This document shows positions 2,909-23,125 of a DNA stretch of 64,000 bases, piece after piece. The stretch lies in the NCBI GenBank assembly GCA_040878185.1, contig JBBDMS010000021.1:52667-116666 (forward strand), in the 5' to 3' direction. Position 1 is the first letter of the stretch; every line of letters begins with the position of its first letter. A program made the position numbers and the translations under genes. The notes beneath the pieces are model-generated. The model was not told where the DNA came from and searched no databases. It was given only the letters and a program-made list of their open reading frames with translations. Origin of the DNA: Dongiaceae bacterium (lineage in GTDB: Bacteria; Pseudomonadota; Alphaproteobacteria; Dongiales; Dongiaceae).

Positions 2909-4078
2909 ATGCGAATATCATCCCTGCAATATGGCCCGATTGGGGCAGGAATGGCTCATACGATGGACTATGATGCACCGGACACAGAGTGGATGACCAT
3001 CGTGACCGAGACGATACAGGAACAGGTCGGAACAGCCCTGCCGCGCGTCTGGCTGCTGCTCGGCAATCGCGCCGGCGACAATGCACAGATCGCAGCGCTG
3101 GGTGAAGCGCTCGGCTGGCCGGTCGAGATCAAGCACCTCACCTTCAACGCCTTGCACCACAACCGTAACCTGTTCCTCGGCGCCTCGCGCCGGACGCTGG
3201 ACCGCGCCAAGTCCGACAAACTGGACGCGCCCTGGCCGGATCTGGTCATCGCCGCGGGACGGCGCAGCGCACCGATCGCGCGATGGGTCCGGCGCCGTTC
3301 CGGCGGCAAGACCCGCCTTGTCCATATCGGGCGGCCCTGGGCGCCGGCGGGCTGGTTCGACCTCATCATCACGACCCCGCAATACGGCATGCGCTGGCGC
3401 CCGAACGTGCTGGTCAACGCAGCACCCCTGCACGCCATGACGCCCGAGCGCATGGAGGTGGCCGCCACGCTCTGGCAGTCGACGCTGGCCCACCTGCCCC
3501 GGCCCTGGACCGCGCTTTTGATCGGTGGCCCGAGCGCCCCCTACCGGTTCGGTCCGGCCGAAGTCCGCGCGCTGATCGACCAGGCGGTCGCCACGACACG
3601 GGCGAGCGGCGGCAGCCTGCTGGTGACCACCAGCGGACGGACCCCCGGCTCGGTCGGCCCGGCGCTCGAAGCCTGGCTCGGCGATGTCGCGCACCATCTC
3701 TTTTTGTGGCGCAAGGGCCAGGGCGACAATCCCTATTACGGTTACCTCGCTTTGGCCGACCGGTTCATCGTCACCGGCGACAGCGTGTCGATGATGACAG
3801 AGGCGACCGCGACCGGACGGCCGGTCGCGATCTATCGGCCGGCCGAGCGGCGGCGTCTGATCGGCAAGCGGGCGACGCGCGTGCCGCCGCTGCGCTGGCT
3901 GGTCGATGTCGGACTGTTGCCCCATCCGCGCGACATCGGCGCGTTCTGCGACCGCCTCGTCGCGTCGGGCCGCGCTTATTATCTCGGCGATCCGCTACCC
4001 GAGCGCAGCAGTCCCGCGCCCGAAGACATGAGCCGCGCCGTCGAGCATGTGCGCGCTTTGTTCAAGACGGAAGGTTGA
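2909..4078 (+). CDS. ELM1/DUF1022-family protein (predicted GT-B-like glycosyltransferase); start uncertain (2909, 2951, 2963 or 2993)
   Basis: LLLGNRAGDNAQIAALGEALGWP near the N-terminus and VTGDSVSMMTEA near the C-terminus are typical of bacterial 'mitochondrial fission ELM1' family proteins. Divergent from the a2M gene. Confidence 0.6.
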   Translation: MRISSLQYGPIGAGMAHTMDYDAPDTEWMTIVTETIQEQVGTALPRVWLLLGNRAGDNAQIAALGEALGWPVEIKHLTFNALHHNRNLFLGASRRTLDRAKSDKLDAPWPDLVIAAGRRSAPIARWVRRRSGGKTRLVHIGRPWAPAGWFDLIITTPQYGMRWRPNVLVNAAPLHAMTPERMEVAATLWQSTLAHLPRPWTALLIGGPSAPYRFGPAEVRALIDQAVATTRASGGSLLVTTSGRTPGSVGPALEAWLGDVAHHLFLWRKGQGDNPYYGYLALADRFIVTGDSVSMMTEATATGRPVAIYRPAERRRLIGKRATRVPPLRWLVDVGLLPHPRDIGAFCDRLVASGRAYYLGDPLPERSSPAPEDMSRAVEHVRALFKTEG

Positions 4079-4109: not shown

Positions 4110-5000
4110 TCAGGCAGCAGCCAAGGGCGGGGTGCGGCGCAACAGATCGAGGGCGTCGTGGCGCAGATGGTTCTGGGCCATTTCCTTGCGGATCAGATCC
4201 TCGCCGACGATCCCCTTCTCCAGGCACTCGCGCAGCAGGCCAAAGAAGAAGCGCTCCTGATTGGGATCGGGATGCGGACGATAGGACGTGACGGCCGGGA
4301 TCGGCACGATCCGCGTCAGCCAGTCGGCGGGCACGATGCCGAGCAGCCGCGCGCGTAGCGTGAAGTCGACCGGCAGGCCGGTCTTCCAGGGCTGGGTCCG
4401 ACGCTTGGTGTTGTGCAGCAGCCTTGTGTTCGCATCGAGATGATCGAAATCGTTCCACATCGGCTCCAGATCGCCGATCGACACGCGCGGCTCGTACTGA
4501 AGCTGGGTCCATTTCAGATAGTCGCGCTTGAATGCAAACAGCTCGTCGAACTGCTCGGCGCAGCGCCAGTGCCGCAGCTTCGCGCAATCGAGCAGCATCA
4601 CCGACGTCGCCTTATATTGTTCGCTGCCGTTATGGCCGGGCCGCGGCCGGGCCCAGATGGCCTTGTCCTGCATATCGCGATCGAGCAGTTCCCAGATATC
4701 GCCGACCGCGAAGATATCCGGGTCCATGATGACGGCGCGGCCTTCGTATCCCATCAGTTCGGGCGGCAAGAACCGCAGCGGCGTGAAGCTCTGCAGATCG
4801 TCCATCTCCCAGACGCGCTTTTCGTTGCCGCGCAGGAAGCGCTGGCCTTCGCGCGCCTTGAGAAAATCGAAATCCTCGGCATGCAGAATCCGGATCTCGA
4901 ACCGGTCGGCATGGCGTGAATTGCGCTCGAGCGAATAGGCCGAGGCGATGGCCCCGATCCGCTGGCGTCGATTGGTGTGGATGAAGACGCAGGATCGCAA
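4110..5000 (-). CDS. GT8-like nucleotide-diphospho-sugar glycosyltransferase (putative)
   Basis: TTG start. DxD-type motif VIMDPDIFAVGDIWELL and SVMLLDCAKL resemble GT8 (LYLDxDxxV ... GVMLINL). Family assignment made by eye only. Confidence 0.45.
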   Translation of the reverse strand: MRSCVFIHTNRRQRIGAIASAYSLERNSRHADRFEIRILHAEDFDFLKAREGQRFLRGNEKRVWEMDDLQSFTPLRFLPPELMGYEGRAVIMDPDIFAVGDIWELLDRDMQDKAIWARPRPGHNGSEQYKATSVMLLDCAKLRHWRCAEQFDELFAFKRDYLKWTQLQYEPRVSIGDLEPMWNDFDHLDANTRLLHNTKRRTQPWKTGLPVDFTLRARLLGIVPADWLTRIVPIPAVTSYRPHPDPNQERFFFGLLRECLEKGIVGEDLIRKEMAQNHLRHDALDLLRRTPPLAAA

Positions 5001-5111: not shown

Positions 5112-6179
5112 CTAGCGGGTTCCCGCCGGCCTGCTGCCCAGCGGCGTCAGGGCAACCTGCTTCAGCGCATCGTACAGCCCTCCGCATTCCGCCTTCAGGC
5201 GCGCCATCTGAGCCGGATCGATATCGGGCTGCCGCGTGAGTACGCCGGAATCGACCTGGCCGATGCTCTTGTCGAAACTGCTGTTCGATTCGATCGGCGC
5301 GCTGTTGAAGGTCGGTATCGTCATCGCCGGATGGAAGTCGATGCCGATCTTCATGCAGAGCGCGCGCATCATGCCGGGCGTGTCGCGGACCAGTTCGTCG
5401 AGACCGATGCAGATCACTTTGTCGCCGTAAGTCCGTTTGTTGCGCAAGGTCGCCTCGGCGGACCGGCGCCACCAGGCGATCGCCGTTTCGAACTGGTCAT
5501 ATTGCCGCTTGCGCGCCTTGCCGCGATTTTTCGACAAAGCCGAGGCGAGCCAGCTCACCGGATCGCGCACAATCGAGACCAGATGCCCATCGGGATAGTC
5601 GCGGAAATATCGCGCGATGGAATCCGGATTCATCGCAAGGCCGGGGCAGAAGGCGCTGATACAGGCCGCCTCGTCATAGGATACGATCCTGTTGCCCCAG
5701 GACTTGAAGAACGCGTGGTAGAAGCAATCGAGCGCGCCGCGCTGCGTTGCCGGCCGCTTCGCCTCGATCAGGTTGCAGAAGATGCGATGGTGAAGCCCGA
5801 CATCGTAGTCGAACGCGTGCATCCGGGTCGGGTTCTTGGCCTTTGAATAACCCGTGCGCGCCCGTTCGATAAAACGCCCGTCGACAAGATAGCGAAACAA
5901 AGCGCGTGCGCCTTTCGTCGGATCGAGATCGGGCCAGTCGGCCTTGCCCCTGGCAATATGCATGTCACCGGGATAGGCGGCGATCTGCGGATGACCGTCG
6001 AGAAGCTGGCTGAGCAGTGTGCCGCCCGAGCGATGGATCTGCGAGATCAGAATGACATTGCGACCAACCGGGCCCAGATCGGAGGCGATATCCGGCACCG
6101 GCGATCGGGGCGATGGAATGAGCCAGCGGTCGCGCAGCCGCTTGAAGCGTCGAAGGCCGGAACTTACCGCGCGAACCAT
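5112..6179 (-). CDS. sulfotransferase family protein (1 of 3)
   Basis: PAPS 5'-phosphosulfate loop HRSGGTLLSQLL and 3'-phosphate motif VSIVRDPVSW. ATG start at 6179. Confidence 0.7.
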   Translation of the reverse strand: MVRAVSSGLRRFKRLRDRWLIPSPRSPVPDIASDLGPVGRNVILISQIHRSGGTLLSQLLDGHPQIAAYPGDMHIARGKADWPDLDPTKGARALFRYLVDGRFIERARTGYSKAKNPTRMHAFDYDVGLHHRIFCNLIEAKRPATQRGALDCFYHAFFKSWGNRIVSYDEAACISAFCPGLAMNPDSIARYFRDYPDGHLVSIVRDPVSWLASALSKNRGKARKRQYDQFETAIAWWRRSAEATLRNKRTYGDKVICIGLDELVRDTPGMMRALCMKIGIDFHPAMTIPTFNSAPIESNSSFDKSIGQVDSGVLTRQPDIDPAQMARLKAECGGLYDALKQVALTPLGSRPAGTR

Positions 6180-6488
6180 GTTCCGATGCCTGCTGCGATC
6201 GTGAAAGGGACCGGCGCCGCGTCCGGAATGCTATGCAACCGGTCCGGCGAGGCCCGGATGGAGTCGCAAGCCAGCCCTCTAAAGTCAACGGATTTGTCGG
6301 TTTTCGGGCCCGCCCGGGGGCCCGAAGCGCGTCCATTTGGCGCAGCTAGGACCGGCCACCCCACCGCATCCTAGGGCTGTAACCCGCCGGCAATTGCCAA
6401 TCCCATGGGCACGCTGGTACCACCAGCCCGCATTTCACGGCCATGCCGCCCGTTGTCACGGTGGGCCCGAACACGCTCCGGAGCATGG

Positions 6489-7595
6489 ATGCCCAGTATC
6501 AAGATCATCGGCGCCGGTTCGATCGGCAACCACCTCGCCCATGCCGCCCGTTCCTTTGGCTGGCAGGTGACGCTGACCGACATCGACCCCGCGGCGCTCG
6601 AACGTTCGCGCGAGAGCATCTATCCGCAGCGTTACGGCGCATGGGACGATGCGATCCGGCTCAAGGATACGCGCGAGGCAATGGGCGACGCGGCCGATGT
6701 GGTCTTCATCGGTACGCCGCCCGACAGCCATATGAAAATCGCATCGGCGGTGCTCGATGCCGCGGCGCCGCGCGCGCTGGTAATCGAGAAGCCGCTCTGC
6801 GGCCCCGATCTTGCCGGCTGCGAGGAACTCTGGCAGCGCACGCGCAAGGCCGGCATCTTCGCCGGCGTCGGATACAATCACACGCTCGGTGCCAATACGG
6901 TGCTTGCCGAGCAGGCGCTGGCGACCGGCACGATCGGCGAGGTCGCGACCTTGTCGGCGCGCACGCGCGAACATTGGGGCGGCATCTTCAAGGCGCACTC
7001 CTGGCTTGCCGGTCCGGCCGACAGCTATCTCGGCTATTGGGCGCGCGGCGGCGGCGCGACCGGCGAGCATTCGCACGGCATCAATATGTGGCAGCATTTC
7101 GCGCATCGCATCGGTGCGGGCAAGGTCGTCGAAGTCAGCGCGACGATGGACATGGTGCGCGACGGCAAGACCGAATATGACCGGCTCGCGCTGATATCGC
7201 TCAAGACCAGCGAAGGGCTGACAGGCGACGTGATCCAGGATGTCGTGACGGCGCCGGCCCAGAAATCGGTGCGCATCCAGGGGCGCGACGGTTTCATCGA
7301 ATGGCGCGTCAATTATGGCCCCAATGTCGATGCGGTGATTACCGGCAGCGGTGACAAGGCGAACGAGCCGACATTGCTGCCGAAGACCCGGGCCGACGAC
7401 TTCAAGGCCGAGATCGCCCATCTTGCCGGCGTTCTCGATGGTGCTTTCGGGGGCAAGGCCGAGGGCTCACCCATTGCGCTCGAACGCGGCCTTGATACGA
7501 TGATGGTCATCGCCGCGGCCTTCAAATCCCATCAGACCGGGCGGCGGGTCGCCATCGACTGGCGCACCGGCTATCGTCCCGACGCCCTGCGCTGA
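6489..7595 (+). CDS. Gfo/Idh/MocA-family NAD(P)-dependent oxidoreductase
   Basis: Rossmann N-terminus MPSIKIIGAGSIGNHLA, then VVFIGTPPDSH and EKPL motifs. I prefer the internal ATG at 6489 to the track start at 6405. Confidence 0.7.
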   Translation: MPSIKIIGAGSIGNHLAHAARSFGWQVTLTDIDPAALERSRESIYPQRYGAWDDAIRLKDTREAMGDAADVVFIGTPPDSHMKIASAVLDAAAPRALVIEKPLCGPDLAGCEELWQRTRKAGIFAGVGYNHTLGANTVLAEQALATGTIGEVATLSARTREHWGGIFKAHSWLAGPADSYLGYWARGGGATGEHSHGINMWQHFAHRIGAGKVVEVSATMDMVRDGKTEYDRLALISLKTSEGLTGDVIQDVVTAPAQKSVRIQGRDGFIEWRVNYGPNVDAVITGSGDKANEPTLLPKTRADDFKAEIAHLAGVLDGAFGGKAEGSPIALERGLDTMMVIAAAFKSHQTGRRVAIDWRTGYRPDALR

Positions 7596-7622
7596 GTCGC
7601 CTGGAGAACCGCCGAGAACCCA

Positions 7623-9155
7623 ATGCAGAAACCGTTCAAGTTCAACGACCTGTTCATCTACGACCTGGCCAATAATCACCAGGGCGATATCGAGCACGCA
7701 TCCAACATCATTCGCGGGATCGGCAAGGCGAACGCCGACGCCGGCGCGCGTGGCGCGTTCAAGTTCCAGTTTCGCCAGCTCGACACGTTCATTCATCCCG
7801 ACTACCAGACCCGGAACGATCTCAAGTTCATTAAACGGTTCAACGAAACCCGGATGTCGATGGACGATTTCCGGAAACTTGCCGACCTGATCCGCGCGCA
7901 GGGCATGCTCACCATGTGCACGCCGTTCGACGAGGAATCGGTCGACGTCATCTGCGACATGGGCCTCGACATCATCAAGGTGGCGAGCTGCTCGGCCGAC
8001 GATCGGCCGCTGCTCGAGAAGGTCGCGCGCGTCAATCGGCCGCTGGTCGTGTCAACGGCGGGCCTGCGGATCGAGGAGATCGACTGGCTGGTTAATTTCC
8101 TCGAAAGCGAGCGTGCGGATTTCGCGCTGATGCATTGCATCGCGGAGTACCCGACCGACGACGACAAGCTGCAGCTCAACCAGATCGAGTTTCTGCGTGA
8201 CCGCTATCGCACCGTTCCGATCGGCTGGTCGACGCATGAGGATCCGGACAACACGGACCCGATCAAGCTCGCCTACGCCAAGGGCGCACGGCTGTTCGAA
8301 CGGCATGTCGGCATCAAGACCGACAAGTATCCGCTGAACGCCTATTCCTCGACGCCCGAGCAGATCGCAAAATGGCTCGCCGCGCATAAATATGCGAAGG
8401 GCATGCTGGGCGCGGCCGAACGCGCGCCCTCCTCGCCGCTCGAACGCAAGACGCTCAAGGAACTGAAGCGCGGCGTCTATGCCAAGCGCACGCTCGCGAA
8501 GGGCAAGCCGATCAAGCGCGAGGATGTGTTCTTTGCGATGCCGGTCGAGGAGGATCAGCTTCTCAGCGGCCAGTGGCGCCCGGGCATGATCGCGCCCGCC
8601 GACATCGCCGCGAAGGCGGCGTTGCCCGAAAGCATGTCCAAGGAAGCGCTGACCGACGAACAACTCGTCTATCAGATCATGCTGCAGGTCCGCGCCATGC
8701 TGAACAAGGCGAACATCCATATCAATGAGGATGCATCGATCGAGATCTCGCATCATTACGGGTTGCGGCGTTTCCGCGAATATGGCGCGGTCATCGTCAC
8801 CTGCATCAACCGCAGTTACGCGAAGAAGCTGGTGATCCAGCTGCCGCGCCAGAAACATCCCTATCACCATCACAAGCAGAAGGAAGAAACCTTCCAGCTT
8901 CTGGATGGCGACATGGAGATCGTGAAGAACGGCGAGCGCATCTCGATGCGGCCGGGCGACACGTTCCTGGTCGAGCCCGACGCCTGGCACAAGTTCCATA
9001 CGTTGGACGGCGCCATCGTCGAGGAAGTCTCGACCACGCATTTCAACAACGATTCCTTCTACGAAGATCCGGAGATCGCCAAGAAGGAACGCCATGAGCG
9101 CAAGACCCAGGTCGACAACTGGCTGGCATATTTCCGGTCCAAGCATGCGCTTTAA
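7623..9155 (+). CDS. neuB: NeuB-family nonulosonate (sialic-acid-type) synthase fused to a C-terminal cupin domain
   Basis: NeuB-like TIM barrel (IIKVASCSADD, MHCIAEYPT, GWSTHE) and a SAF-like segment (GVYAKRTLAKGKPIKREDVFF). An extra ~150 aa forms a cupin: HPYHHHKQKEETF...GDTFLVEPDAWHKFH...EEVSTTHFNNDSFYED. Confidence 0.8.
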   Translation: MQKPFKFNDLFIYDLANNHQGDIEHASNIIRGIGKANADAGARGAFKFQFRQLDTFIHPDYQTRNDLKFIKRFNETRMSMDDFRKLADLIRAQGMLTMCTPFDEESVDVICDMGLDIIKVASCSADDRPLLEKVARVNRPLVVSTAGLRIEEIDWLVNFLESERADFALMHCIAEYPTDDDKLQLNQIEFLRDRYRTVPIGWSTHEDPDNTDPIKLAYAKGARLFERHVGIKTDKYPLNAYSSTPEQIAKWLAAHKYAKGMLGAAERAPSSPLERKTLKELKRGVYAKRTLAKGKPIKREDVFFAMPVEEDQLLSGQWRPGMIAPADIAAKAALPESMSKEALTDEQLVYQIMLQVRAMLNKANIHINEDASIEISHHYGLRRFREYGAVIVTCINRSYAKKLVIQLPRQKHPYHHHKQKEETFQLLDGDMEIVKNGERISMRPGDTFLVEPDAWHKFHTLDGAIVEEVSTTHFNNDSFYEDPEIAKKERHERKTQVDNWLAYFRSKHAL

Positions 9156-9762
9156 GGCGGTCGTCTTCGATTTCGACGGCACGCTTATCGATTCGGCCGA
9201 CGCCAAGCGCGATGCGTTCTTCCGCCTGTTTCCGGCGGCGGAGCCTTATCGCGCCATCGTCAATCGCGTACTGACCGCGGACCCGGACGGATCGCGCCAT
9301 GTCGTCATCCCGCGCATGATCGAAGCGATGACCGCTAAAAAGCTCGCCCTTCCGCACGGCCATAATGCGACCGACCGCATCGGTGCCTATGCGCAGGCAG
9401 TCTATGCGGCGCAGCGCGCGGCCGCGGAATGCCCCGGCGCCGAAACCCTGCTGCGCGCGCTCAAGGGTCACGCAGCCCTCTATATCAGCTCGAACACCCC
9501 CGAACCCGATCTCGGCACGCTGGTTGCCGCGCGAGGCTGGAGCGAACTGGTTGACGGTCTCTTCGGTCATCCGCGCGACAAGAGCGAAACGCTCGCGTTG
9601 CTGGTCGAGCGTCACGATGCGGCGAAGGACGAGATCGCCGTTGTAGGCGATGGCGAGAGCGACGAACGCGCGGCATACGCGATCGGCTGTCCGTTCTTCC
9701 GGGTCTGCGGCCCCAAGGCACTCGCCGATGTCGGGCGCAAGCTCGGGCTCGAACATGTTTGA
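9145..9762 (+). CDS. HAD-superfamily (subfamily IA-like) phosphatase
   Basis: Motif I VVFDFDGTLID, motif II ISSNTP, motif IV VVGDGESD. Its ATG at 9145 overlaps the neuB stop (9153-9155). Confidence 0.75.
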   Translation: MRFKAVVFDFDGTLIDSADAKRDAFFRLFPAAEPYRAIVNRVLTADPDGSRHVVIPRMIEAMTAKKLALPHGHNATDRIGAYAQAVYAAQRAAAECPGAETLLRALKGHAALYISSNTPEPDLGTLVAARGWSELVDGLFGHPRDKSETLALLVERHDAAKDEIAVVGDGESDERAAYAIGCPFFRVCGPKALADVGRKLGLEHV

Positions 9763-10474
9763 GGGCAAGCGCGTCCTGGTCGTCGTGCCGGCGCGCGGCG
9801 GCAGCCAGGGCGTCAAGCTGAAGAACCTGCGCGAGATCGGCGGGGTTCCGTTGGTCGTACAAGCCGGACGGATCGCGATCGCACTCGATTTTGCCGATCG
9901 CTGCATCGTCTCGACCGATCACGCCGAGATCGCCCGCGTCGCGACGGAAGCCGGGCTTGCCGCGCCGTTTGTCCGACCCGAGGCGCTTTCGGGCGCAGTC
10001 ATCAGCGATCTACAGGTTCTGACGCACGCGCTCGAGGAAATGGAGCGCATCGACGGCCGGCGCTACGACATCGTCGTGATGCTTCAGCCGACTTCGCCGA
10101 GCCGCACCGTGCAGCATGTGCGCGACACGGTTACCCTACTGGTTCGCGGCGCCTTCGATGCGGTCTGGACCGTCAGCGAGAGCGACAGCAAGGCCCATCC
10201 GCTGAAGCAACTGACCGTGGGCGAGGGCGGCGGGCTCGACTACTACGATTCCAAGGGTGCTGCGATCGTGGCCCGCCAGCAGCTTCAGCCGGTCTATCAC
10301 CGCAACGGCATTACCTATGCGTTCACGCGTGCCTGCCTGCTCGACCAGAAAACAATCAAAGGCGCGCGTACCGGCGCGCTCGTCGTCGAGGGTCCGGTCG
10401 TCAATATCGACACCGAACTCGACCTCGAATGGGCGAATTTCCTGCATCAGCGCGCCACCACCGCGCGGCCCTAG
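9755..10474 (+). CDS. neuA: acylneuraminate cytidylyltransferase family (CMP-nonulosonate synthetase)
   Basis: VVVPARGGSQGVKLKNL and MLQPTSPSR are canonical CMP-NeuAc/CMP-Kdo synthetase motifs. Its start overlaps the HAD stop (ATGTTTGA). Confidence 0.8.
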   Translation: MFEGKRVLVVVPARGGSQGVKLKNLREIGGVPLVVQAGRIAIALDFADRCIVSTDHAEIARVATEAGLAAPFVRPEALSGAVISDLQVLTHALEEMERIDGRRYDIVVMLQPTSPSRTVQHVRDTVTLLVRGAFDAVWTVSESDSKAHPLKQLTVGEGGGLDYYDSKGAAIVARQQLQPVYHRNGITYAFTRACLLDQKTIKGARTGALVVEGPVVNIDTELDLEWANFLHQRATTARP

Positions 10475-10484
10475 CCGCCGCGCC

Positions 10485-11786
10485 TCAGCCGCGCGCGGGC
10501 GCGTGGGGAAAGGCTTCGGCGAAACGCACCGGCCAGGTTTCGATCGGGAACGACTGGAACGAGCCGTCGTTCACGATGAGATCGTGCCGCGCCAGCCGGT
10601 CCGCATGGCGTTGGCAGAACGTGGCCCAGGAATCGTACCAGTCGTTCAGAAAAACGCCGCTTTCGTACTTCTTCAGAAGATCGCGGTCGCGCTTGCGCTG
10701 GCGGTTGGTGCGATCCGACCGGGCCATCTCGCCGGACTGGATATGAGCGCGGAGCCGTTCGCCCTGCGCCATCAAGGTCAGAACCGTCACGCGATCGGCA
10801 ACTCCCATCAAATGCAGCACCGGATCGCGATCGTAGGACCGGATGCCGGTGCGCGACGGGCGCAGGAAATCGTAATGCAACAGCACGCGCTCGTTGCGAC
10901 CGTTCGGCATCGAATCCGCTTCCGACGCCTGCAGGAGCTGCCAGTCTGAGCCGTCCAGACCGTATTGGGCGCGCAGCGACGCATCCGCCATCAGCCGGTC
11001 GATCAACGTGCTCTTCCCCACGCTCGTCGGCCCGGTGACAATCGCGAGATGCCCGATGCGGCGCTTGCGCGCTTCGACCAGCACACGGCCCTTGAACGGC
11101 GAGCGGCTGATCGTAACAGGCTCGAATGCGTTCGTGTGCACGTTGAGCACGATTTCGAGCGCACCTGGTGTGAAGAGATAGGTGCGCCCCGCCGCATCGC
11201 CGCGCTTCTTCGGGATTCCGAGAAACATCGCCGGCGAACCGATGCCGAAGACGCGAAGCGGGTTGATCCGGTCGCGCACGACATCGCGCCAGGTCGGCAC
11301 GGCGACTTCCAGAACCAGCCGGTCGCGCGTCATCCGCATCATCTTCTGCAACCCGCCAAGCGGATCGAACAGATGATGCAGCACGTTCAGACAGGCCACC
11401 GTATCGAACTGCCGTCCCCGATCGTCCCATTCCTCGAAATTGGCGCGGATATATTCAGGCCGGACCTCAAGTAATTCGGCGAACTCGCGGGCCTGACGCA
11501 GATTGCGCGGGTCGGTCTCGATACCGGTGGCCGTGGCGGCGCCGCGCTGCAGCGCCTCGACGCAGAAATAGCCGAGATAGCTGCCGATATCGAAGAACGT
11601 CTTGCCGTGAAAATCGTCGCCGAAGAGACGTGGCAGCAGATAACTGCGATCATAACCCGGCGTCGTGCCGCCATCGGGCAGGACGAACGCCTGATATTCC
11701 GGCGCCTCGTCGAGCAACCGCTGCAGACGCGCATGCCATTCGGGATCGCGATCCGGCTGCGGCACCGTCACTTTGCGGTCGTTCAT
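10485..11786 (-). CDS. fusion protein: class I SAM-dependent methyltransferase (N-terminal) + P-loop NTPase/kinase-like domain (C-terminal), paralog A
   Basis: MTase motif I FFDIGSYLGYF and CLNVLHHL. Walker A VTGPTSVGKST, Walker-B-like VLLHYD. ATG at 11786 (MNDRKV) avoids overlap with the upstream gene. Colinear with the 16834-18087 product. Confidence 0.65.
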   Translation of the reverse strand: MNDRKVTVPQPDRDPEWHARLQRLLDEAPEYQAFVLPDGGTTPGYDRSYLLPRLFGDDFHGKTFFDIGSYLGYFCVEALQRGAATATGIETDPRNLRQAREFAELLEVRPEYIRANFEEWDDRGRQFDTVACLNVLHHLFDPLGGLQKMMRMTRDRLVLEVAVPTWRDVVRDRINPLRVFGIGSPAMFLGIPKKRGDAAGRTYLFTPGALEIVLNVHTNAFEPVTISRSPFKGRVLVEARKRRIGHLAIVTGPTSVGKSTLIDRLMADASLRAQYGLDGSDWQLLQASEADSMPNGRNERVLLHYDFLRPSRTGIRSYDRDPVLHLMGVADRVTVLTLMAQGERLRAHIQSGEMARSDRTNRQRKRDRDLLKKYESGVFLNDWYDSWATFCQRHADRLARHDLIVNDGSFQSFPIETWPVRFAEAFPHAPARG

Positions 11787-11796
11787 GCGCGGCGGG

Positions 11797-12735
11797 TCAC
11801 AACGAAATTGCGAGGCGCTGGATCTCGTCCAGATCGAGCGCACGAGAGAGCGTGTCGACGGGCCAGTCGGCCGGGCTCAGCTCGGGTGCGTAGATATCGG
11901 TGTACTGGATCAGCAGCATGACCCGCGTTTTACTGTTCTGCCGCGAGCCATAATGCAGACAGCGCGACGTGTCGACCAGCATGCTTTGGCCCGGCTGGCC
12001 GGTCAGCTTCACTTCGCGGCTCGGACCCAGAAACCGGTCGACCTCTTCGATCGTCAGCCGCCCGCGGTCATAATTCAGCCCTTCGACCACGCGCTCGGAT
12101 TCGTCCGCCGGCAGGAAGGTGAACGGCCCGTGCTCGTCGGTCACGTCGTCGACGCACACGAACAACTTGACCTGACGGTCATCGGCGAAATCGAGATGAT
12201 AGAGCTGGCTGCCGATCTCGGAGAGATTCGGCAGGCTGACCATGACCGACACATCGCTCAGGATCGGCACCGCGCCGAGATAGCGGCTCACCGCATCGAG
12301 GACCGGGCGCGCCAACGCGAGGCGCATAATGTCGAGATACTGCGCAGTCGCGCGCTTCTGCGTGGCATAGACCAGGAATTCCTTGCGCGAGGCACCGTGA
12401 TCGTAACGCTGCAGCGCTCCGGTGCGTTCGCTCTCGCGAAAGACTTCCATGCCCTGTTTTACAGCCGGCGCGATCTCGGGCAGGCGGTTCGGTGCGACGG
12501 CGGCACAGGCACGCGCCCGATCGATCGCAACTGCATCGCTGGCAGCGACGCCCATTTGCCGCGCAAGCTCGGGACGATGCAGATAGGGAAACGGATTCAT
12601 CCCGATGCCGACCGCACGGCTGATACGGATCGCCGGCACGCGCGGCACCCCGAGACGCTTCGCCAGGAACAGATTGAGGTTCCGGCTGGTTGCGTAACGG
12701 GCCTTGGCATAAGACTGGCGAAGCGACTGGCTCAT
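11797..12735 (-). CDS. Fe(II)/2-oxoglutarate-dependent oxygenase-like protein (PhyH-like), putative
   Basis: HxD facial-triad candidate LYHLDFAD, distal CLHYGSRQNSKTR (His plus Arg), and GPFTFLP. Confidence 0.5.
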   Translation of the reverse strand: MSQSLRQSYAKARYATSRNLNLFLAKRLGVPRVPAIRISRAVGIGMNPFPYLHRPELARQMGVAASDAVAIDRARACAAVAPNRLPEIAPAVKQGMEVFRESERTGALQRYDHGASRKEFLVYATQKRATAQYLDIMRLALARPVLDAVSRYLGAVPILSDVSVMVSLPNLSEIGSQLYHLDFADDRQVKLFVCVDDVTDEHGPFTFLPADESERVVEGLNYDRGRLTIEEVDRFLGPSREVKLTGQPGQSMLVDTSRCLHYGSRQNSKTRVMLLIQYTDIYAPELSPADWPVDTLSRALDLDEIQRLAISL

Positions 12736-12979
12736 TCGGTCAGAAGACCTTCTGCGTTTGGGAGCCGCTGGCAGGGCGGCCGCATCGCGAAATACGCCAT
12801 CGTCCTGGCGGAGGCGAATCCCTTCATTTCGCGGCGAATTAGCTGGCCAGCCTCCATTCTTGTCAAGGCGACGCCCGACCGCAGCCTGCGATCCGCGGCT
12901 CGACAGTCATGAGGCTGCCGACTAGGCTTCGGCCTCCGCGCAACGCCCAACCTTCCGTTTCGAGACCGATCGCTGCGCC

Positions 12980-13873
12980 ATGCAAGACGCCCCGCCGCCC
13001 TGGACCGAACGCGCCGCTTTGGTCTACGGGCCCCGCAAAGCCGGTACCACCTTGTTGCTGAACCTGCTGGACGGGAGCGACGCGCTATTGGCGTTTCCGA
13101 GCGAAGTGAAGCTGAAAGCGCTGCATCGCATCCCCGCCGGCGCGCATTCGCGTGAGACCTATCTGGCGCGATCGCGCATCGCCGAGGTCGACGCGGCCCG
13201 CCTGTCGCAGGATCGCTACCAGGCGCTTTGGGCAGCGGTCGATCCTAAAGCCGCCGCCGGCAGGCTTTGCACGCTGCTGCGCCTCGACGCATGGCATGTG
13301 CACCAGACCGCGGCGACGGCGCCGCGCGAACCGCAACTCTGGTGCGCCAAAGAGGTCGGCGGCGATACCGATGCGATCCTCGATCTGTGGCGGCGCTGTT
13401 TCCCCGATGCGCCGGTCCTGTTCATTCTGCGCAATCCCCTCATGGTCACGCGGGCCGTGTTGCAGGACCGCCGGCGCAAGGATCGACGATTGAGCATCGC
13501 CGAGATCGTCCGCGAAACCGCCGACCCGATGCGCGTGGTGGCGGCGCAGAGCCGTCATCTCGGCGATCCGCGCCTGCTCGCGATTGCATACGAGGACATG
13601 GTGACCGACACGCCCGCGACGATGCGACGCATCGCAGCGTTCCTCGGCATCCCCTTCGATGCGATCCTGTTGCAACCGACATTGTTCGGCGAACCAATCG
13701 TGGTGCGAACCTCGTCGCGTTCGACCACCGAAGTGTTTCAGGCTTCGGAGGAATGGGAGGATGGGCTGACCCGTCGGGAGCAGTTCTGGGTCAGGCTCAC
13801 GGCCGCTGTGCTCGGCTGTCTGCCCGGCTATCGCGTCGATTATGCATGGCTGCGGCAACGCGTGGCCGATTAG
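12980..13873 (+). CDS. sulfotransferase family protein (2 of 3)
   Basis: GPRKAGTTLLLNLL (5'-PSB loop) and FILRNPLMVTRA (3'-PB). Confidence 0.7.
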   Translation: MQDAPPPWTERAALVYGPRKAGTTLLLNLLDGSDALLAFPSEVKLKALHRIPAGAHSRETYLARSRIAEVDAARLSQDRYQALWAAVDPKAAAGRLCTLLRLDAWHVHQTAATAPREPQLWCAKEVGGDTDAILDLWRRCFPDAPVLFILRNPLMVTRAVLQDRRRKDRRLSIAEIVRETADPMRVVAAQSRHLGDPRLLAIAYEDMVTDTPATMRRIAAFLGIPFDAILLQPTLFGEPIVVRTSSRSTTEVFQASEEWEDGLTRREQFWVRLTAAVLGCLPGYRVDYAWLRQRVAD

Positions 13874-14202
13874 GAAATGGCCTGCAACGAGCGGGTCAGC
13901 CCGATCCACCTCCGCGTTCCGGCGCGGTGTCACGATATTGACCCGCCAATTGCGGCGGGGTTCCCGTATTCCCGCTTTCCCAGACGCGCCATTCACCGTT
14001 AGTCTTTGGAGAGATTGACTGATTCTTCCCGATTTGATCTCGCGCAATCGGGTAACCTTGGGCGATCCGGCCGGCGATGTTCGCGGAGTTCGCCACTTTC
14101 GCCCCAAAAGAGACCGATGAACGCAACCCGGCAGACCGGAATCCTTTCTGAAAGCGCACGTCGAACCGCGCCTTGCCTTTCGGCTTTTGGTAAACCCCGA
14201 TC

Positions 14203-15222
14203 ATGAACCCCGATAGCGGCGTCTATCGCAACCCGCCGTTGGAGGATCCGGTTCGGGTCATCTATGTCTGCTGCCACGGGCGAAGCGGCTCGACATTGCT
14301 CGGTGCCATCGCCGGCTTGCTGCCTCAGCACAGCTTCGTCGGCGAAGTGCGTACGATCTGGGAGGATGGTGTCGACAACAACAGGAATTGCGGCTGCGGC
14401 GAACCGTTCCGGAGCTGCCGCTTCTGGAACGAAGTGTTTAAGCGCGCCTATGGCGGGTTCGACACGCCGGCGGCCATGAAAACGCGCGACCTGCTGACGC
14501 GGCTTATGAAGGTCAACAGCAGGCCCGCTCTGTGGTGGGCGCTGCTGCGCGAAAACCGCCGGCACGAGACAACTCGCGCGTTGGCCGATGCGCTCGCCCC
14601 GCTCTATCGCGCCATCCACGACGTATCCGGTGGGCAGATCATCGTCGACACCTCCAAGCATGCACGGTTTGGTTTCGTCATTGCCAACATTCCCGGTGTC
14701 GATATCCGCTTCGTCAATCTGATCCGCGATGTTCGCGGCGTCATCTTTTCCCGTGCGCGACCGGCGCTGATGCGCGACGGCAGCACGCGACATGCGCAAC
14801 GCTCGAAGCAGCCGCACTACAGAACGGGAACCGTGTTGGGGCGTTGGCTCTTCCGGAATGCCCTCGCGATGCGCCTCGTTCGTCGCCATGGCGGCATTCG
14901 CGTACTTTATGAAGACTTCGTGCATGACCAGAAGCCCGCGCTCGTCGCATTGAGCGACAACGATCGCGCGCGGATCGCGCTGGATCGGCTGGCGTACCCG
15001 GATGCGGCGGAGATCGTCCAGCATCAGTTGGCGGGCAACTGGATCCGCAACCTGAAGATCGACACCTCGGAGCGTTGGCCCGACGAGCTGCCTCGTCCCG
15101 TGCAGCGGATCGCGACATTCTTCTCGTGGCCACTTCGGCGACGCTATCGCTACGAAGTGCAACAGCCGAGCGGCTTCGCCGAGCGTCCCGACACGAGGCA
15201 GAGCGCAAGAGCGGCTCGCTAG
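14203..15222 (+). CDS. sulfotransferase family protein (3 of 3)
   Basis: CCHGRSGSTLLGAI (5'-PSB) and VNLIRDVRGVIFS (3'-PB). Contains a Cys cluster CGCGEPFRSC. Confidence 0.7.
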   Translation: MNPDSGVYRNPPLEDPVRVIYVCCHGRSGSTLLGAIAGLLPQHSFVGEVRTIWEDGVDNNRNCGCGEPFRSCRFWNEVFKRAYGGFDTPAAMKTRDLLTRLMKVNSRPALWWALLRENRRHETTRALADALAPLYRAIHDVSGGQIIVDTSKHARFGFVIANIPGVDIRFVNLIRDVRGVIFSRARPALMRDGSTRHAQRSKQPHYRTGTVLGRWLFRNALAMRLVRRHGGIRVLYEDFVHDQKPALVALSDNDRARIALDRLAYPDAAEIVQHQLAGNWIRNLKIDTSERWPDELPRPVQRIATFFSWPLRRRYRYEVQQPSGFAERPDTRQSARAAR

Positions 15223-15332: not shown

Positions 15333-16700
15333 ATGTCCCGTATACCGCCCGAGACCCTGGTCATTCCGGTCGAGACCCTGAACCGGGAGTTCGACGGCAA
15401 GCTATTGCTCGCGTTGGCCGCTGCCGAACGCGGCTATCGGGCGATCGTCGGTGGACGAACCCGCCTCCATCGGCATCTGACCGACCTGCCGCCCTCGATC
15501 TATCTCAGCAAGGGCATCCGCACCGGCAATCGCGTGATCCTCTCGCTGCTCGAGAAGCTCGGCCATACCGTGGTCGCGCTCGAGGAGGAAGGGCTCGTGC
15601 GCTTTTCCGACGAAGCGTACCTGATGATGCTCGATGTAGAAACGTTCAACCGCGCGCAGATGCTGTTTGCCTGGGGCCATGACAATGCCGAGGTGTGGCG
15701 GCGGTTCGGCGGCTATCGCGGTACGCCCATCATCGAGGCCGGCAACCCGCGCATGGACATGCTGCGACCCGAAGTCCGTAATTTCTACACCGACGATGTG
15801 GCGGCGATCCGGCAACGCTACGGCCGCTTCGCGCTCTTCAACAGCAATTTCAGTTTCGTCAATCATTTCATTCCCGGCCATATCCGCTTCCGCATTCCGG
15901 CCAATGCACGCTCGGAACGCTACGACCAGATGCGCAGCGGCGTGTATCAGCACAAAAAAGCGTTGTTCGACAGTTTCTGCGCGCTGATCCCGTCGCTAAG
16001 CAAAGCCGTGCAGCCGCACAATCTGGTGATTCGCCCGCATCCATCCGAGAACCGGCAGACCTGGAGAGATGTCGCAGCGGGCCTGCCCAACGTGCATGTC
16101 GTGTATGAGGGTACTGTCGTGCCGTGGCTGCTGGCCGCCGACGTGTTGGTGCATAACAGCTGCACGAGCGGCGTGGAGGCAGCCATCCTCGGCACGCCCG
16201 CCTTGTCCTATCGTCCGGTTTGGTCGGCGGAGTTCGATCCGCCCTTGCCGAACGATGTCAGCAGTGAGTTCGACGATGCAGCGGCGCTGGGCGATGCGGC
16301 GCAGGCGATCCTCGCGCGCAATTCGGCGGAGCGCTCGCTCTCGCCGGCGAACTATGAGCGGTTGTCCCATCACGTCGCGGCGCTCGACGGTAAACTGAGT
16401 TGCGACCGGATTCTCGATGCGCTGGTCGAACAGCAGGACCGGTTTGCGTCGATGCCGGCCCCAGGCTTGCTCGACCGGGCCATCGGTCATGCCGGCGTCG
16501 CCGCCCGCAATGCGCGACGGGCGATCACGACCCGGATGATGGGCCGCAGCAGTGCGACCTATACCGCCTACAAATTTCCGGGACTGGACGAGGCCTATGT
16601 CGCCACCCGGATCGAACGGTTTTGCACCCTCCTCGGGCGGTTCGACGGCATCGGCGTCCGACGCCTTCGGGACGATATCTTTCTGCTGGAACGGCGCTGA
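15333..16700 (+). CDS. surface-carbohydrate biosynthesis protein, GT-B-like (candidate nonulosonate/glycosyl or phospho-glycosyl transferase)
   Basis: ATG at 15333 (MSRIPPETL). C-terminal Rossmann-like IRPHPSE ... VLVHNSCTSGVEAAILGTPAL is typical of GT-B enzymes. From memory it resembles the family annotated 'surface carbohydrate biosynthesis protein' that accompanies nonulosonate loci. Confidence 0.5.
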   Translation: MSRIPPETLVIPVETLNREFDGKLLLALAAAERGYRAIVGGRTRLHRHLTDLPPSIYLSKGIRTGNRVILSLLEKLGHTVVALEEEGLVRFSDEAYLMMLDVETFNRAQMLFAWGHDNAEVWRRFGGYRGTPIIEAGNPRMDMLRPEVRNFYTDDVAAIRQRYGRFALFNSNFSFVNHFIPGHIRFRIPANARSERYDQMRSGVYQHKKALFDSFCALIPSLSKAVQPHNLVIRPHPSENRQTWRDVAAGLPNVHVVYEGTVVPWLLAADVLVHNSCTSGVEAAILGTPALSYRPVWSAEFDPPLPNDVSSEFDDAAALGDAAQAILARNSAERSLSPANYERLSHHVAALDGKLSCDRILDALVEQQDRFASMPAPGLLDRAIGHAGVAARNARRAITTRMMGRSSATYTAYKFPGLDEAYVATRIERFCTLLGRFDGIGVRRLRDDIFLLERR

Positions 16701-21779: not shown

Positions 21780-21782
21780 TCC

Positions 21783-22733: not shown

Positions 22734-22739
22734 ATCGAG

Positions 22740-22769
22740 TTGTAACAAAGGGTTACAATTCTTTATTTC
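22740..22769 (+). promoter_or_regulatory. perfect 7-bp inverted repeat TTGTAAC-N5-GTTACAA followed by a T-rich run, in an AT-rich island upstream of the ACP gene
   Basis: Read directly: ttgtaacaaagggttacaa ttctttatttc. Lies 7 nt after the SDR stop (22733). Either an operator or a weak intrinsic attenuator. Confidence 0.4.
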
Positions 22770-22869
22770 ACTAAACCCCTGACCTAATTGGAATCTACGG
22801 CTGTCCAGGCCACGACGCGCGTCGCGGTATTTGGATTCGTGGAGCGATCGAGTCGAGGCAGCGTTGAGA

Positions 22870-23121
22870 ATGGAAGTGGCCGAGTCTGGAACGTTCGAGC
22901 GGGTCGTGGAAGTTTTGCGACCGTTCCGGAAGAACGAGACCCCGATCGGACGGGGCAGCGATCTGGCCGACGATCTTCGCCTCGACTCGCTGGCGGTGAT
23001 GGACCTGATGATGGAACTCGAGGAACGGTTCGACATCACCATCCCATTGAATGCCGTTCCGGAAATCCGGACGGTCGGCGATCTGGCCGATTTCGTCGCA
23101 AAGCAGAAGGCAGAGGGATAA
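22870..23121 (+). CDS. acyl carrier protein (dedicated, sphingolipid-associated)
   Basis: Phosphopantetheine site DDLRLDSLAVMDLMMELEE. ATG at 22870 gives an 83-aa protein; the track's TTG at 22831 is probably too long. Confidence 0.85.
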   Translation: MEVAESGTFERVVEVLRPFRKNETPIGRGSDLADDLRLDSLAVMDLMMELEERFDITIPLNAVPEIRTVGDLADFVAKQKAEG

Positions 23122-23125
23122 GACG

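Follow-up and report, generated by a model that had tools for sequence, protein, structure and literature searches.

The sphingolipid and ceramide-phosphoglycerate locus of Caulobacter crescentus comprises aasR, cerR, acpR, spt, cpgABC, cpgD, bcerS, and LptC2/F2/G2 (PMC11324152, PMC9393093, PMC12275187), and its second Lpt copies have been proposed to move sphingolipids (PMC11324152). In two of the papers on this locus, no mention of a sulfotransferase was found. Several sulfotransferases in one glycan cluster are known from the xss (synechan) cluster of Synechocystis, which carries XssA and XssE (PMC8205485). The window analyzed here, meaning the whole stretch of 64,000 nucleotides from a Dongiaceae bacterium, has the same core order as Caulobacter, aasR-cerR-acp-spt (20010-24343, plus strand; AMP-binding, Epimerase, and Aminotran_1_2 domains, with an ACP reading frame in the spacer at 22734-23050), together with a convergent cpgC-cpgB-cpgA. 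The likeness extends to an LptF/G-family gene, a fatty-acid hydroxylase, a GNAT-like candidate ceramide synthase, and a CpgD-like nucleotidyltransferase. Unlike the Caulobacter locus, which is not known to carry a nonulosonic-acid module, the window has about 15 kb of genes for sugar synthesis and tailoring immediately upstream of the core, three sulfotransferases among them, and an MsbA-like ABC exporter is found where Caulobacter has another putative flippase. The first-pass annotation of this DNA reported the sulfotransferases and did not describe this context, a NeuB-cupin ulosonic-acid cassette joined to a Caulobacter-type ceramide locus, which points to a likely substrate for them.

The three sulfotransferases all scored above the gathering score of 27 bits for Sulfotransfer_3 (PF13469): ST1 (355 aa; 5112-6179, minus strand) with 56.3 bits, ST2 (297 aa; 12980-13873, plus strand) with 62.8 bits and a further 29.2 bits to PF00685, and ST3 (339 aa, with a conserved Cys cluster; 14203-15222, plus strand) with 29.1 bits. 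The reading frames, strands, and motifs given in the first-pass annotation were recovered, namely HRSGGTLL and VRDP in the translation of ST1, GPRKAGTTLL and LRNP in ST2, and HGRSGSTLL and IRDVRG in ST3. Among 32 homologues of ST1, R50, S51, G52, and G53 (the 5'-PSB loop), D61, H63, and R205...S213 are invariant, the last forming the 3'-PB motif with a spacing of 8. ST2 has G17, R19, K20, G22, T23, T24, E42, K44, K124, R151, and P153 invariant in 35 homologues, while Thr/Arg replaces the classical Ser of its 3'-phosphate motif. In 40 homologues of ST3, the invariant residues are R27, S28, G29, T31, E48, C63, C65, C72, D149, K152, and R175, and S183, eight residues past R175, is conserved in at least 90%. 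By Pfam score ST3 is the weakest assignment of the three; its AlphaFold model (pLDDT 86) returned solely sulfotransferases as top Foldseek matches in the PDB (CurM ST, TPST1/2, Stf9, Stf1, and SULT1E1). Against the PDB, ST1 weakly matched the OLS sulfotransferase 4gox (E 1.9e-5), and ST2 matched 4gox and tyrosylprotein sulfotransferases. All three genes evolve under purifying selection, with dN/dS values of 0.13-0.19 against same-genus orthologues (0.13 for ST1). The suggestion that they are mutually divergent and not recent duplicates is borne out by BLASTP, in which ST1 was 23% identical to ST2 (E 1e-9) and ST3 gave no significant match to either, and no close paralogues of the three occur in the whole genome. 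The best explanation is that they are PAPS-dependent O-sulfotransferases, with predicted activity, from three separate subfamilies within the Sulfotransfer_3 group.

As previously noted, cysD, cysN, and cysC are absent from the window. A genome search placed the APS-kinase and PAPS_reduct matches solely on other contigs, with CysD on C15, a CysN-CysC fusion on C52, and a CysH of the APS type on C27. The first-pass annotation had named the lack of an APS kinase or PAPS pathway as grounds for giving up its sulfotransferase claim; as an APS kinase is encoded elsewhere in the genome, the claim is not refuted in this way. PAPS would come from cysD and cysN-cysC away from the window. With a CysH that belongs to the APS-reductase type, this genome probably retains its APS-kinase domain mainly to feed its many sulfotransferases.

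These number about 20 (18-25 PF13469 matches) in many contexts, with further clusters on three contigs (C41, C32, and C50). Genomes of the same genus hold 12-18 Sulfotransfer_3 genes, the family median is about 7, and some homologous cassettes in other genomes contain 3-4 sulfotransferases each. The view that such enzymes usually occur singly and that the group is a rarity consequently does not hold for this genome or its relatives. Three within 10 kb still exceeds chance, with about 0.02-0.05 such triplets expected in this sulfotransferase-rich genome.

The cassette begins at its left edge with a putative glycosyltransferase of the Elm1 family (2909-4078, plus strand; PF06258, 227 bits). ST1 and the 296-aa gene downstream of it (4110-5000, minus strand) probably form a two-gene unit; for the 296-aa protein, the family search returned only a non-significant GT8 hint (E 0.13). 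Divergent from ST1 is the four-gene sugar-synthesis operon (6405-10474, plus strand, with refined start codons), which was assigned by Pfam/NCBIfam matches to a GFO/IDH/MocA oxidoreductase (6405-7595), a NeuB-cupin fusion synthase (7623-9155), a HAD phosphatase (9145-9762), and a CMP-ulosonate synthetase (9755-10474). A minus-strand pair (10485-12735) follows, reading first a PhyH-like oxygenase candidate (11797-12735), named from a weak PhyH match to a homologue, and then methyltransferase/P-loop kinase fusion A (10485-11843), whose methyltransferase domains precede a predicted C-terminal fold (pLDDT 88.7) that matches adenylate and guanylate kinases, PSTK, and zeta toxin. This C-terminal model matches neither APS kinases nor sulfotransferases. 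Downstream of ST2 and ST3 on the plus strand, a TIGR04396 "surface carbohydrate biosynthesis protein" (15333-16700, start codon set at 15333; NCBIfam 332 bits, cut-off 125) weakly matches the BFO_1060 glycosyltransferase domain and is a candidate ulosonic-acid transferase. Fusion B (16834-18087, plus strand), with Pfam methyltransferase domains and 34% identity to fusion A over the full length, and an MsbA-like half-ABC exporter (18155-19933, plus strand; ABC_membrane and ABC_tran domains) come next.

The GFO, NeuB-cupin, HAD, CMP-transferase, ST2, oxygenase-like, and TIGR04396 genes recur in at least 12 loci of varied alphaproteobacterial MAGs and cultured Rhodoligotrophos. The four sugar-synthesis genes keep a constant order in at least 12 loci, with synthase identities of 61-94%. 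Conserved loci carry 1-4 sulfotransferases, of which only ST2 was present in all the loci examined; among Hyphomicrobiales its gene directly follows the CMP-transferase gene with a 4 nt overlap. ST2 is the cassette's core sulfotransferase, and ST3 and ST1 are accessory members. ST3 occurs in 6 cassette loci and is missing from the related contig L018, close orthologues of ST1 are limited to the same genus and one related contig, and both are exchanged between the cassettes of relatives. This distribution makes it plausible, as had been proposed, that the three act on different acceptors or positions. The 296-aa gene is co-conserved with the Elm1 gene in 10 loci (51-95% identity). Co-conservation with the cassette was seen for the Elm1 gene at several unlinked loci and for the exporter where the cassette is unlinked from spt. 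ST2 tracks ulosonic-acid genes: where isolated ST2 homologues lie on a chromosome, the same genome still has a NeuB-cupin gene, and a 38% homologue in a Solemya symbiont adjoins a classical NeuB/NeuC/CMP-transferase set.

In the genus of this genome, the cassette lies directly upstream of aasR-cerR-acp-spt and is co-directional with it. ST2, ST3, the TIGR04396 gene, the methyltransferase-kinase fusion, the ABC exporter, aasR, cerR, acp, and spt share one strand, and terminator-like sites showed no excess over chance. The junction was also found in a same-genus MAG and in a more distant metagenome contig. In most lineages, the cassette does not adjoin spt. The ceramide core is encoded elsewhere in 12 of 13 other cassette genomes, compared to a background of about 20%. 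All 10 cassette genomes reached through loci have an Spt orthologue (422-537 bits), and in the five whose Spt setting was examined the gene has aasR-cerR-spt-cpgC surroundings, with the order aasR-cerR-acp-spt kept in all five. Cultured Rhodoligotrophos appendicifer and R. defluvii each have both the cassette and the spt core. In a sample of 201 genomes of the order, Spt occurred in 4 of 5 cassette genomes and 40 of 196 cassette-free genomes (one-sided Fisher p = 0.009), a statistic that overstates independence since the compared genomes are related. About 20% of the order has Spt regardless of the cassette. No Spt was found in the cassette genome G063, which is fragmented, with its NeuB-cupin match on the 270th contig. 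In the sister genus (G004), a different nonulosonic-acid module (NeuA/B/C) with Elm1 and TIGR04396 genes occupies the same spot beside the ceramide core.

Judging from the genes, the best reading is that the ulosonic-acid head group of a glycosphingolipid is O-sulfated in the cytoplasm, and we place it somewhat above even chances. The oxidoreductase, NeuB-cupin synthase, HAD phosphatase, and CMP-transferase would yield a CMP-activated ulosonic acid, probably deaminated (Kdn-like), as the gene set includes the phosphatase and no aminotransferase or acetyltransferase. The TIGR04396 glycosyltransferase would add this sugar to a base probably laid down by the Elm1-like glycosyltransferase. The likeliest acceptor is the head group of a ceramide-anchored glycolipid, because in this genus the cassette directly precedes the MsbA-like exporter and aasR-cerR-acp-spt in the same orientation. 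Decoration would comprise sulfate from ST1-ST3, probably methyl phosphate from the two fusion proteins, and possibly a hydroxyl from the oxygenase candidate. ST2 probably sulfates the ulosonic acid itself, while ST3 and ST1 may place further, lineage-variable sulfates at other positions or on a neighboring sugar; the pairing of each enzyme with a particular hydroxyl is entirely what we infer. Sulfation would have to take place at the inner membrane on its cytoplasmic side, as PAPS is available there, after which the ABC exporter would flip the lipid and the locus's own Lpt-like proteins would carry it outward. Since the sulfotransferase cassette is joined to ceramide genes, its product may be a "ganglioside-like" bacterial lipid carrying sulfate, which, if true, is previously undescribed. 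Literature searches found neither a sulfated sphingolipid nor a sulfated nonulosonic acid reported from bacteria, and no lipid structure, sulfate labelling, or enzyme assay for this or related organisms.

The main rival, which we consider unlikely, is that the cassette and its sulfotransferases decorate lipopolysaccharide, so that sulfate, methyl phosphate, and a hydroxyl would be added to a Kdo/Kdn-like residue in the lipid A core, and the ceramide genes would merely mark a general envelope-lipid neighborhood that also holds Lpt genes. A KdoO-family (PF11004) hydroxylase gene in the related locus L018 agrees with this, as the substrate of KdoO is Kdo bound to lipid A, and so does the Elm1-type glycosyltransferase, a family found in lipooligosaccharide outer-core loci. 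The window also contains LptF/G and a weak match to a lipid A acyltransferase, the majority of cassette copies are not beside spt, and LPS, with LpsS, is to our knowledge the sole sulfated rhizobial envelope glycan with a named enzyme. Weighing against lipopolysaccharide are the co-occurrence with the ceramide core, the co-directional junction in two lineages, and the replacement module at the same spot in the sister genus. The cassette also carries its own MsbA-like exporter, independent of the housekeeping copy, and the second Lpt copies of Caulobacter are proposed to serve sphingolipids (PMC11324152).

Less probable still is that the genes build a capsular or extracellular polysaccharide with sulfate, or a nonulosonic-acid-bearing glycan attached to protein, comparable to synechan or the Tannerella S-layer glycan. 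The alphaproteobacterial loci examined contain no polymerase, Wzx/Wzy pair, outer-membrane polysaccharide exporter (Wza), KpsMT pair, or oligosaccharyltransferase; their glycosyltransferase candidates number just two or three, their one exporter is a half-ABC protein of the lipid type, and this gene content suggests a glycolipid rather than a polymer. The weak BFO_1060 match of the TIGR04396 protein speaks for this rival, the domain being named after a Tannerella locus tag. The ST2 homologue of the Solemya symbiont likewise lies in an apparent O-antigen or capsule cluster, which also has genes for UDP-glucose dehydrogenase, PMT_2, and GT2, and in synechan two sulfotransferases of different subfamilies serve one polysaccharide (PMC8205485). 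That at least one of ST1-ST3 acts on a small metabolite or peptide, independently of its neighbors, appears very unlikely, even in a genome with so many Sulfotransfer_3 genes, with polyketide intermediates and tyrosine as substrates of the nearest solved relatives, and with ST2 homologues in unrelated neighborhoods in two genomes. In many lineages, homologues of ST2 and ST3 occur on the same contigs and in the same cassettes, ST1 adjoins the Elm1 and 296-aa genes in its three closest loci, and the low chance expectation for a triplet also speaks against it.

Compared to known systems, the cassette resembles xss as a bacterial glycan cluster with several sulfotransferases of distinct subfamilies and PAPS genes elsewhere. 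The xss product is, however, a Wzx/Wzy-polymerised exopolysaccharide made with eight glycosyltransferases, whereas this cassette is without polymerisation or polysaccharide export genes and has a nonulosonic-acid pathway and a ceramide association. NodH, NoeE, LpsS, M. loti KpsS, and Stf0/Stf1/Stf9 likewise perform PAPS-dependent O-sulfation of envelope or secreted glycoconjugates, and the structural matches of ST3 include Stf1 and Stf9. The earlier comparison with NodH and NoeE does not extend to orthology: a NoeE-type identity was rejected for ST1-ST3 at 11-13 bits to the NoeE equivalog (cut-off 500), and no Stf0-type Pfam match was found in them. The rhizobial and mycobacterial enzymes target Nod factors, LPS, capsule, and trehalose and are unlinked to nonulosonic-acid genes. 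WbdD of E. coli O9a (PMC3482155) combines a kinase and a SAM methyltransferase in one protein in a glycan locus with an ABC exporter, as the fusions here appear to do. By analogy, this suggests methyl-phosphate capping beside the sulfations. The kinase fold of WbdD is eukaryotic-protein-kinase-like, and the kinase-like domain modeled here has a small P-loop kinase fold, so the likeness would be convergence at most. WSCD1/WSCD2 and the sulfated gangliosides and sulfatide (PMC9304399) would offer no more than a functional analogy to the sialic-acid-type O-sulfation on a ceramide-anchored glycan proposed here, with the vertebrate enzymes residing in the Golgi lumen, while ST1-ST3 would act in the cytoplasm.

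The three sulfotransferase ORFs of the first-pass annotation, ST1 (5112-6179, minus strand), ST2 (12980-13873, plus strand), and ST3 (14203-15222, plus strand), were recovered by profile search, and the quoted cofactor motifs were confirmed in their translations. Family membership was assigned by the gathering threshold of Pfam Sulfotransfer_3 (PF13469, 27 bits), which all three exceeded with 56.3, 62.8, and 29.1 bits, respectively. ST2 also passed the Sulfotransfer_1 cut-off, and ST3 was marginal by sequence. Homologue searches gathered 127, 409, and 217 matches for ST1, ST2, and ST3. In the ST1 alignment, the 5'-phosphosulfate loop R50-S51-G52-G53 was invariant, as were R205 and S213 of the 3'-phosphate motif, which lie 8 residues apart. 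In ST2, the loop residues G17/R19/K20/G22/T23/T24 were invariant together with E42 and R151; T157/R158 stand where a Ser at +8 is expected, and no conserved Ser was found 8 residues past R151 in the homologue alignment. ST3 showed an invariant loop (R27-S28-G29/T31), E48, R175, and cysteine cluster (C63/C65/C72), with S183, at +8 from R175, nearly invariant.

Because the Pfam score of ST3 was marginal and a PDB sequence search with it gave no match, its structure was modelled (pLDDT 86, pTM 0.86). The top 16 Foldseek matches of the model in the PDB were all sulfotransferases, with moderate TM-scores of only 0.43-0.55, and included the CurM ST domain, TPST1/2, Stf9, Stf1, SULT1E1, and an Anopheles cytosolic sulfotransferase. 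By sequence, ST1 and ST2 matched the OLS polyketide sulfotransferase 4gox (E 2-3e-5), and ST2 also matched TPSTs. An earlier comparison with the Nod-factor enzymes NodH/NoeE was not borne out, and membership in that group was rejected: against a cut-off of 500 bits for NCBIfam NF052394 (NoeE), ST1 and ST2 scored 11.4 and 13.5 bits, and ST3 gave no match. Judged by profile, motifs, and, for ST3, predicted fold, the three are genuine divergent sulfotransferases and new members of a known family.

ST1 and ST2 shared 23% identity (BLASTP, E 1e-9), and no significant BLASTP similarity linked ST3 to either. When ST1-3 were used as tblastn queries against the whole genome, only self-matches and the weak ST1/ST2 cross-match were returned; therefore none is a recent duplicate, in line with the mutual divergence described for them earlier. 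Recent foreign acquisition was rejected as well, as ST1-3 match their neighbours in GC and GC3 (GC3 0.77-0.78) and composition gives no signal. dN/dS against same-genus orthologues was 0.13, 0.17, and 0.19 for ST1, ST2, and ST3, so the genes are kept by selection; values were lower for the synthase (0.07) and for Spt (0.05), the aminotransferase-domain product of the ceramide core, and the three sulfotransferase genes thus evolve faster. A non-coding spacer of 329 nt (13874-14202) separates ST2 from ST3, and in the metagenome contig L018 (JGI contig Ga0645780_01780) the TIGR04396 gene comes straight after ST2. ST3 may have been inserted later, bringing its own promoter.

The genome (3.68 Mb, 68 contigs), in which the window lies on contig C21 with a G+C content of ~64%, contained 18 Sulfotransfer_3 matches at E<=1e-5 and 25 at E<=0.01. 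Further clusters among these profile matches comprised three genes within 3.5 kb on contig C41 (223-3709), four within 8 kb on C32 (11823-19816), and two on C50 (43336-47996), besides others. Within the genus, 12-18 matches were found in each of the other three genomes, compared with a median of ~7 in the rest of the family, which gives the genus the highest Sulfotransfer_3 density within its family. Sulfotransferases are thus a lineage trait, and the argument from rarity, that such enzymes usually occur singly, did not hold for this lineage. Three within 10 kb far exceeded the chance expectation of ~0.02-0.05. Many of the matches belong to frames 500-630 aa in length, so that many of the genome's predicted sulfotransferases may be fused to other domains. 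According to the synechan paper (PMC8205485), no earlier bacterial polysaccharide cluster was known to carry two sulfotransferases, so that multi-sulfotransferase glycan loci are still little described.

The window itself holds no PAPS genes, as had been noted; APS kinase and cysD are encoded on other contigs. The single APS-kinase match of the genome is located at the start of contig C52 (2-1693), in a frame of 563 aa that is cut by the contig end and fits a bifunctional CysN/CysC model with 554 bits. CysD is encoded at the edge of contig C15 (324-1235), pointing off the contig. With cysD running off one contig end and cysN-cysC open at the start of another, both probably belong to a single operon that an assembly gap interrupts. 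CysH (contig C27; locus L003:1294-2082) carries CC...CxxC cysteines and an ECGIH terminus, which are marks of an APS reductase rather than a PAPS reductase. With a CysH of this type, assimilation would bypass PAPS, and the APS-kinase domain therefore probably exists mainly for supplying the sulfotransferases. CysQ activity could come from the four inositol-phosphatase-family genes of the genome. The reading of the first-pass annotation, which depended on an APS kinase or PAPS pathway in the genome, thus finds cysD and a cysN-cysC fusion in place; its genuine, divergent enzymes with PAPS supplied in trans stand, while its rarity argument and Nod-factor comparison fall away.

The left end of the window truncates a bacterial alpha-2-macroglobulin gene (1-2865, minus strand), whose product has MG domains and an N-terminal TPR region. 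Next come genes for an Elm1-family glycosyltransferase (2909-4078) and a 296-aa protein of no known family (4110-5000, minus strand). Beyond ST1, the stretch 6405-10474 encodes a GFO/IDH/MocA oxidoreductase, a 510-aa NeuB-cupin protein, a HAD phosphatase, and a CMP-transferase, and 10485-12735 (minus strand) a methyltransferase / P-loop fusion (fusion A, 10485-11843) and an oxygenase-like protein. ST2 and ST3 are followed by a gene for a TIGR04396 surface-carbohydrate protein (15333-16700, 332 bits), and a second methyltransferase / P-loop fusion (fusion B, 16834-18087, plus strand) and an MsbA-like exporter lie between it and aasR, where the ceramide core aasR-cerR-acp-spt (20010-24343, plus strand) begins. 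After spt come convergent cpgC/B/A, an LptF/G gene, a fatty-acid hydroxylase, a GNAT-like protein, and a CpgD-like transferase. A PDB-type sequence search with the Elm1-like, 296-aa, oxygenase-like, and TIGR04396 proteins gave no solved-structure match.

The cassette corresponds to no published family and was defined here by the occurrence of the GFO, 510-aa NeuB-cupin, HAD, CMP-transferase, ST2-type, and TIGR04396 genes in one locus. This full set was present in the window and at least 12 other loci. Besides Rhodoligotrophos appendicifer, the contexts of ST2 homologues came from several MAGs assigned to Hyphomicrobiales, Parvibaculaceae, or Aestuariivirga and from unclassified alphaproteobacterial MAGs. 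Across them, the order GFO, NeuB-cupin, HAD, CMP-transferase, ST2 recurred, and the overlap of the ST2 and CMP-transferase genes was often 4 nt. Cassette loci also held the oxygenase-like gene, the TIGR04396 gene, and 1-3 additional sulfotransferases, the latter counted per locus from precomputed Pfam labels because family-specific HMMs built here missed some Pfam-annotated accessory sulfotransferases. The Elm1 gene, the 296-aa gene, and the ABC exporter were often present too. Across the cassette copies examined, ST2 occurred in all, ST3 in six loci, and ST1 in the closest relatives only. One MAG locus (L052:15849-19266; bin.62, GCA_022842165.1) has two Elm1-type genes, each with a ~300-aa neighbour gene, and between them an additional sulfotransferase and an ATP-grasp (ATPgrasp_ST) gene.

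Among five cases of stand-alone ST2 homologues, three had a NeuB-cupin gene at another site of the genome. A 38% ST2 homologue of the Solemya velum gill symbiont adjoins a classical NeuB/NeuC/CMP-transferase set and two other sulfotransferases. Cassette, stand-alone, and Solemya contexts together indicate that ST2-type enzymes track nonulosonic-acid genes. In the window, the NeuB domain (7623-9155) is joined to a cupin (Cupin_2 / lyxose-isomerase-like) where SAF is usual. The protein was exactly 510 aa long in every Pfam-annotated cassette copy, and tblastn matches spanned nearly all 510 residues. The cupin might provide the aldose substrate through isomerisation. The gene set includes a HAD phosphatase and no aminotransferase or acetyltransferase, which suggests that the cassette sugar is deaminated and Kdn-like, with many free hydroxyls, a form that would suit multiple O-sulfation.

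The C-terminal domains of the two fusions (10485-11060 and 17515-18084) were modelled as small P-loop kinases (pLDDT 88.7) resembling adenylate kinase, guanylate kinase, PSTK, and zeta toxin. Several cassette loci contained homologues of the fusions, at times present as separate genes. Like WbdD (PMC3482155), the fusions could be a methyl-phosphate-adding kinase/methyltransferase pair. A hidden APS kinase or extra sulfotransferase domain in them was rejected, the Pfam matches being generic Walker-A hits and the fold adenylate/guanylate-kinase-like; no APS kinase was among the 50 listed structural matches of the P-loop domain model.

The ceramide core is of the Caulobacter type, with the order aasR-cerR-acp-spt and with cpg genes and a GNAT-like candidate ceramide synthase (385 aa) nearby. 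From ST2 through spt, genes run on one strand with short gaps. Terminator-like sites (15 against 13.7 expected) were not in excess over chance, and one promoter-like site against 3.8 expected was uninformative on transcription units. The fusion of cassette and ceramide core was also found in the same-genus MAG locus L020, at 86-95% identity, and in the distant contig L018. All ten other cassette genomes reached via the loci carried an Spt orthologue (422-537 bits, compared with 150-212 for paralogous aminotransferases), and the Spt context was aasR-cerR-spt-cpgC in five of five genomes examined in detail. Among 201 genomes drawn evenly from the order of Rhodoligotrophos, NeuB-cupin occurred in 5 and Spt in 44. 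Spt was present in 4 of the 5 NeuB-cupin genomes versus 40 of the 196 without the cassette (one-sided Fisher p = 0.009, a test that overstates independence because the sampled genomes are related).

In L018 (6418-12530), the flanking genes were 77-91% identical to those of the window, while ST2 reached 53%, TIGR04396 70%, and fusion A 69%. ST3 is missing there, and a KdoO-family (PF11004) gene is present, to which the 312-aa oxygenase-like protein of the window had no detectable similarity. The divergent ST2 inside similar flanks suggests allele replacement in a variable tailoring region within a conserved frame, an arrangement likewise seen in antigenically variable surface-glycan loci. Among 24 other genomes of the window's family, 23 had Spt, and ST2 was confined to this genus. 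The sister genus (G004, locus L053:10493-20000) has a classical nonulosonic-acid module, of the sialic-acid type, beside ABC-aasR-cerR-spt, in the same position as the window's cassette, with the order Elm1, CMP-transferase, NeuB-SAF, NeuC-type epimerase, a family-less gene, and TIGR04396; no sulfotransferase was found in this module. Ahead of its Elm1 gene lies a 958-aa AMP-binding/ACP/acyltransferase fusion. It is thus a trait of the family to have a nonulosonic-acid module by the ceramide core, and the sulfated NeuB-cupin version, as predicted from gene content, is the variant of this genus.

The reading we favour, tentatively, is O-sulfation of an ulosonic-acid head group on a ceramide-anchored glycolipid. 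A bolder form of it, which we consider less likely than not, gives this lipid a Kdn-type (sialic-acid-like) head group bearing up to three sulfate esters and methyl phosphates, so that sulfated gangliosides would have a counterpart in bacteria. In the favoured reading, CMP-ulosonic acid would be made in the cytoplasm and moved by the TIGR04396 enzyme onto a ceramide-linked sugar set by the Elm1-type enzyme. ST2 would sulfate the ulosonic acid, ST3 and ST1 would add extra sulfates at other positions or on a neighbouring sugar, and the two fusions, as in WbdD (PMC3482155), would add methyl phosphate. As PAPS is cytoplasmic and no obvious signal peptide was seen when the N-termini of ST1-3 were read by eye, sulfation would precede flipping. 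The ABC exporter would then flip the finished lipid, and the Lpt-like proteins of the locus would carry it outward, the same route as proposed for Caulobacter phosphosphingolipids (PMC11324152).

The main alternative, that the sulfotransferases and the cassette target the LPS core, draws on the KdoO-family gene of L018 and the Lpt genes close by, and we regard it as rather unlikely. Less likely again is a capsule, exopolysaccharide, or protein glycan as the product: no polymerases, Wzx/Wzy, outer-membrane polysaccharide exporters, or KpsMT were found in the cassette loci examined, which argues against a capsule or exopolysaccharide, and these loci carry a single lipid-type half-ABC exporter. 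That one or more of the sulfotransferases serves an unrelated role is the least probable reading and would surprise us.

The literature search found no paper on a sulfated bacterial sphingolipid or a sulfated bacterial nonulosonic acid, no paper tying spt to nonulosonic-acid genes, and no bacterial nonulosonic-acid sulfotransferase; the Caulobacter ceramide-locus literature searched made no mention of sulfotransferases. ST2 is a defined candidate for such an enzyme and, if confirmed, would be the first bacterial one. A multiply sulfated nonulosonic-acid ceramide lipid would be a new outer-membrane lipid class, strongly anionic, which could replace or supplement LPS, with consequences for envelope stability, metal binding, phage recognition, and host mimicry; lineage-specific surface charge patterns would then arise from the variable accessory sulfotransferases. 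Cultured Rhodoligotrophos species, among them R. appendicifer (GCA_007474605.1, locus L014) and R. defluvii, carry both cassette and ceramide core, so the sulfated ceramide-lipid idea can be tested now. To our knowledge, sulfated forms of glycolipids and of sialic acids are considered a eukaryotic chemistry, and the head groups of bacterial sphingolipids described to date are phosphoglycerate, phosphoethanolamine-type groups, and simple uronic sugars. The cassette-ceramide fusion predicts a sulfated, ganglioside-like bacterial lipid, and as a gene arrangement it departs in a new way from the envelope-lipid systems known so far.
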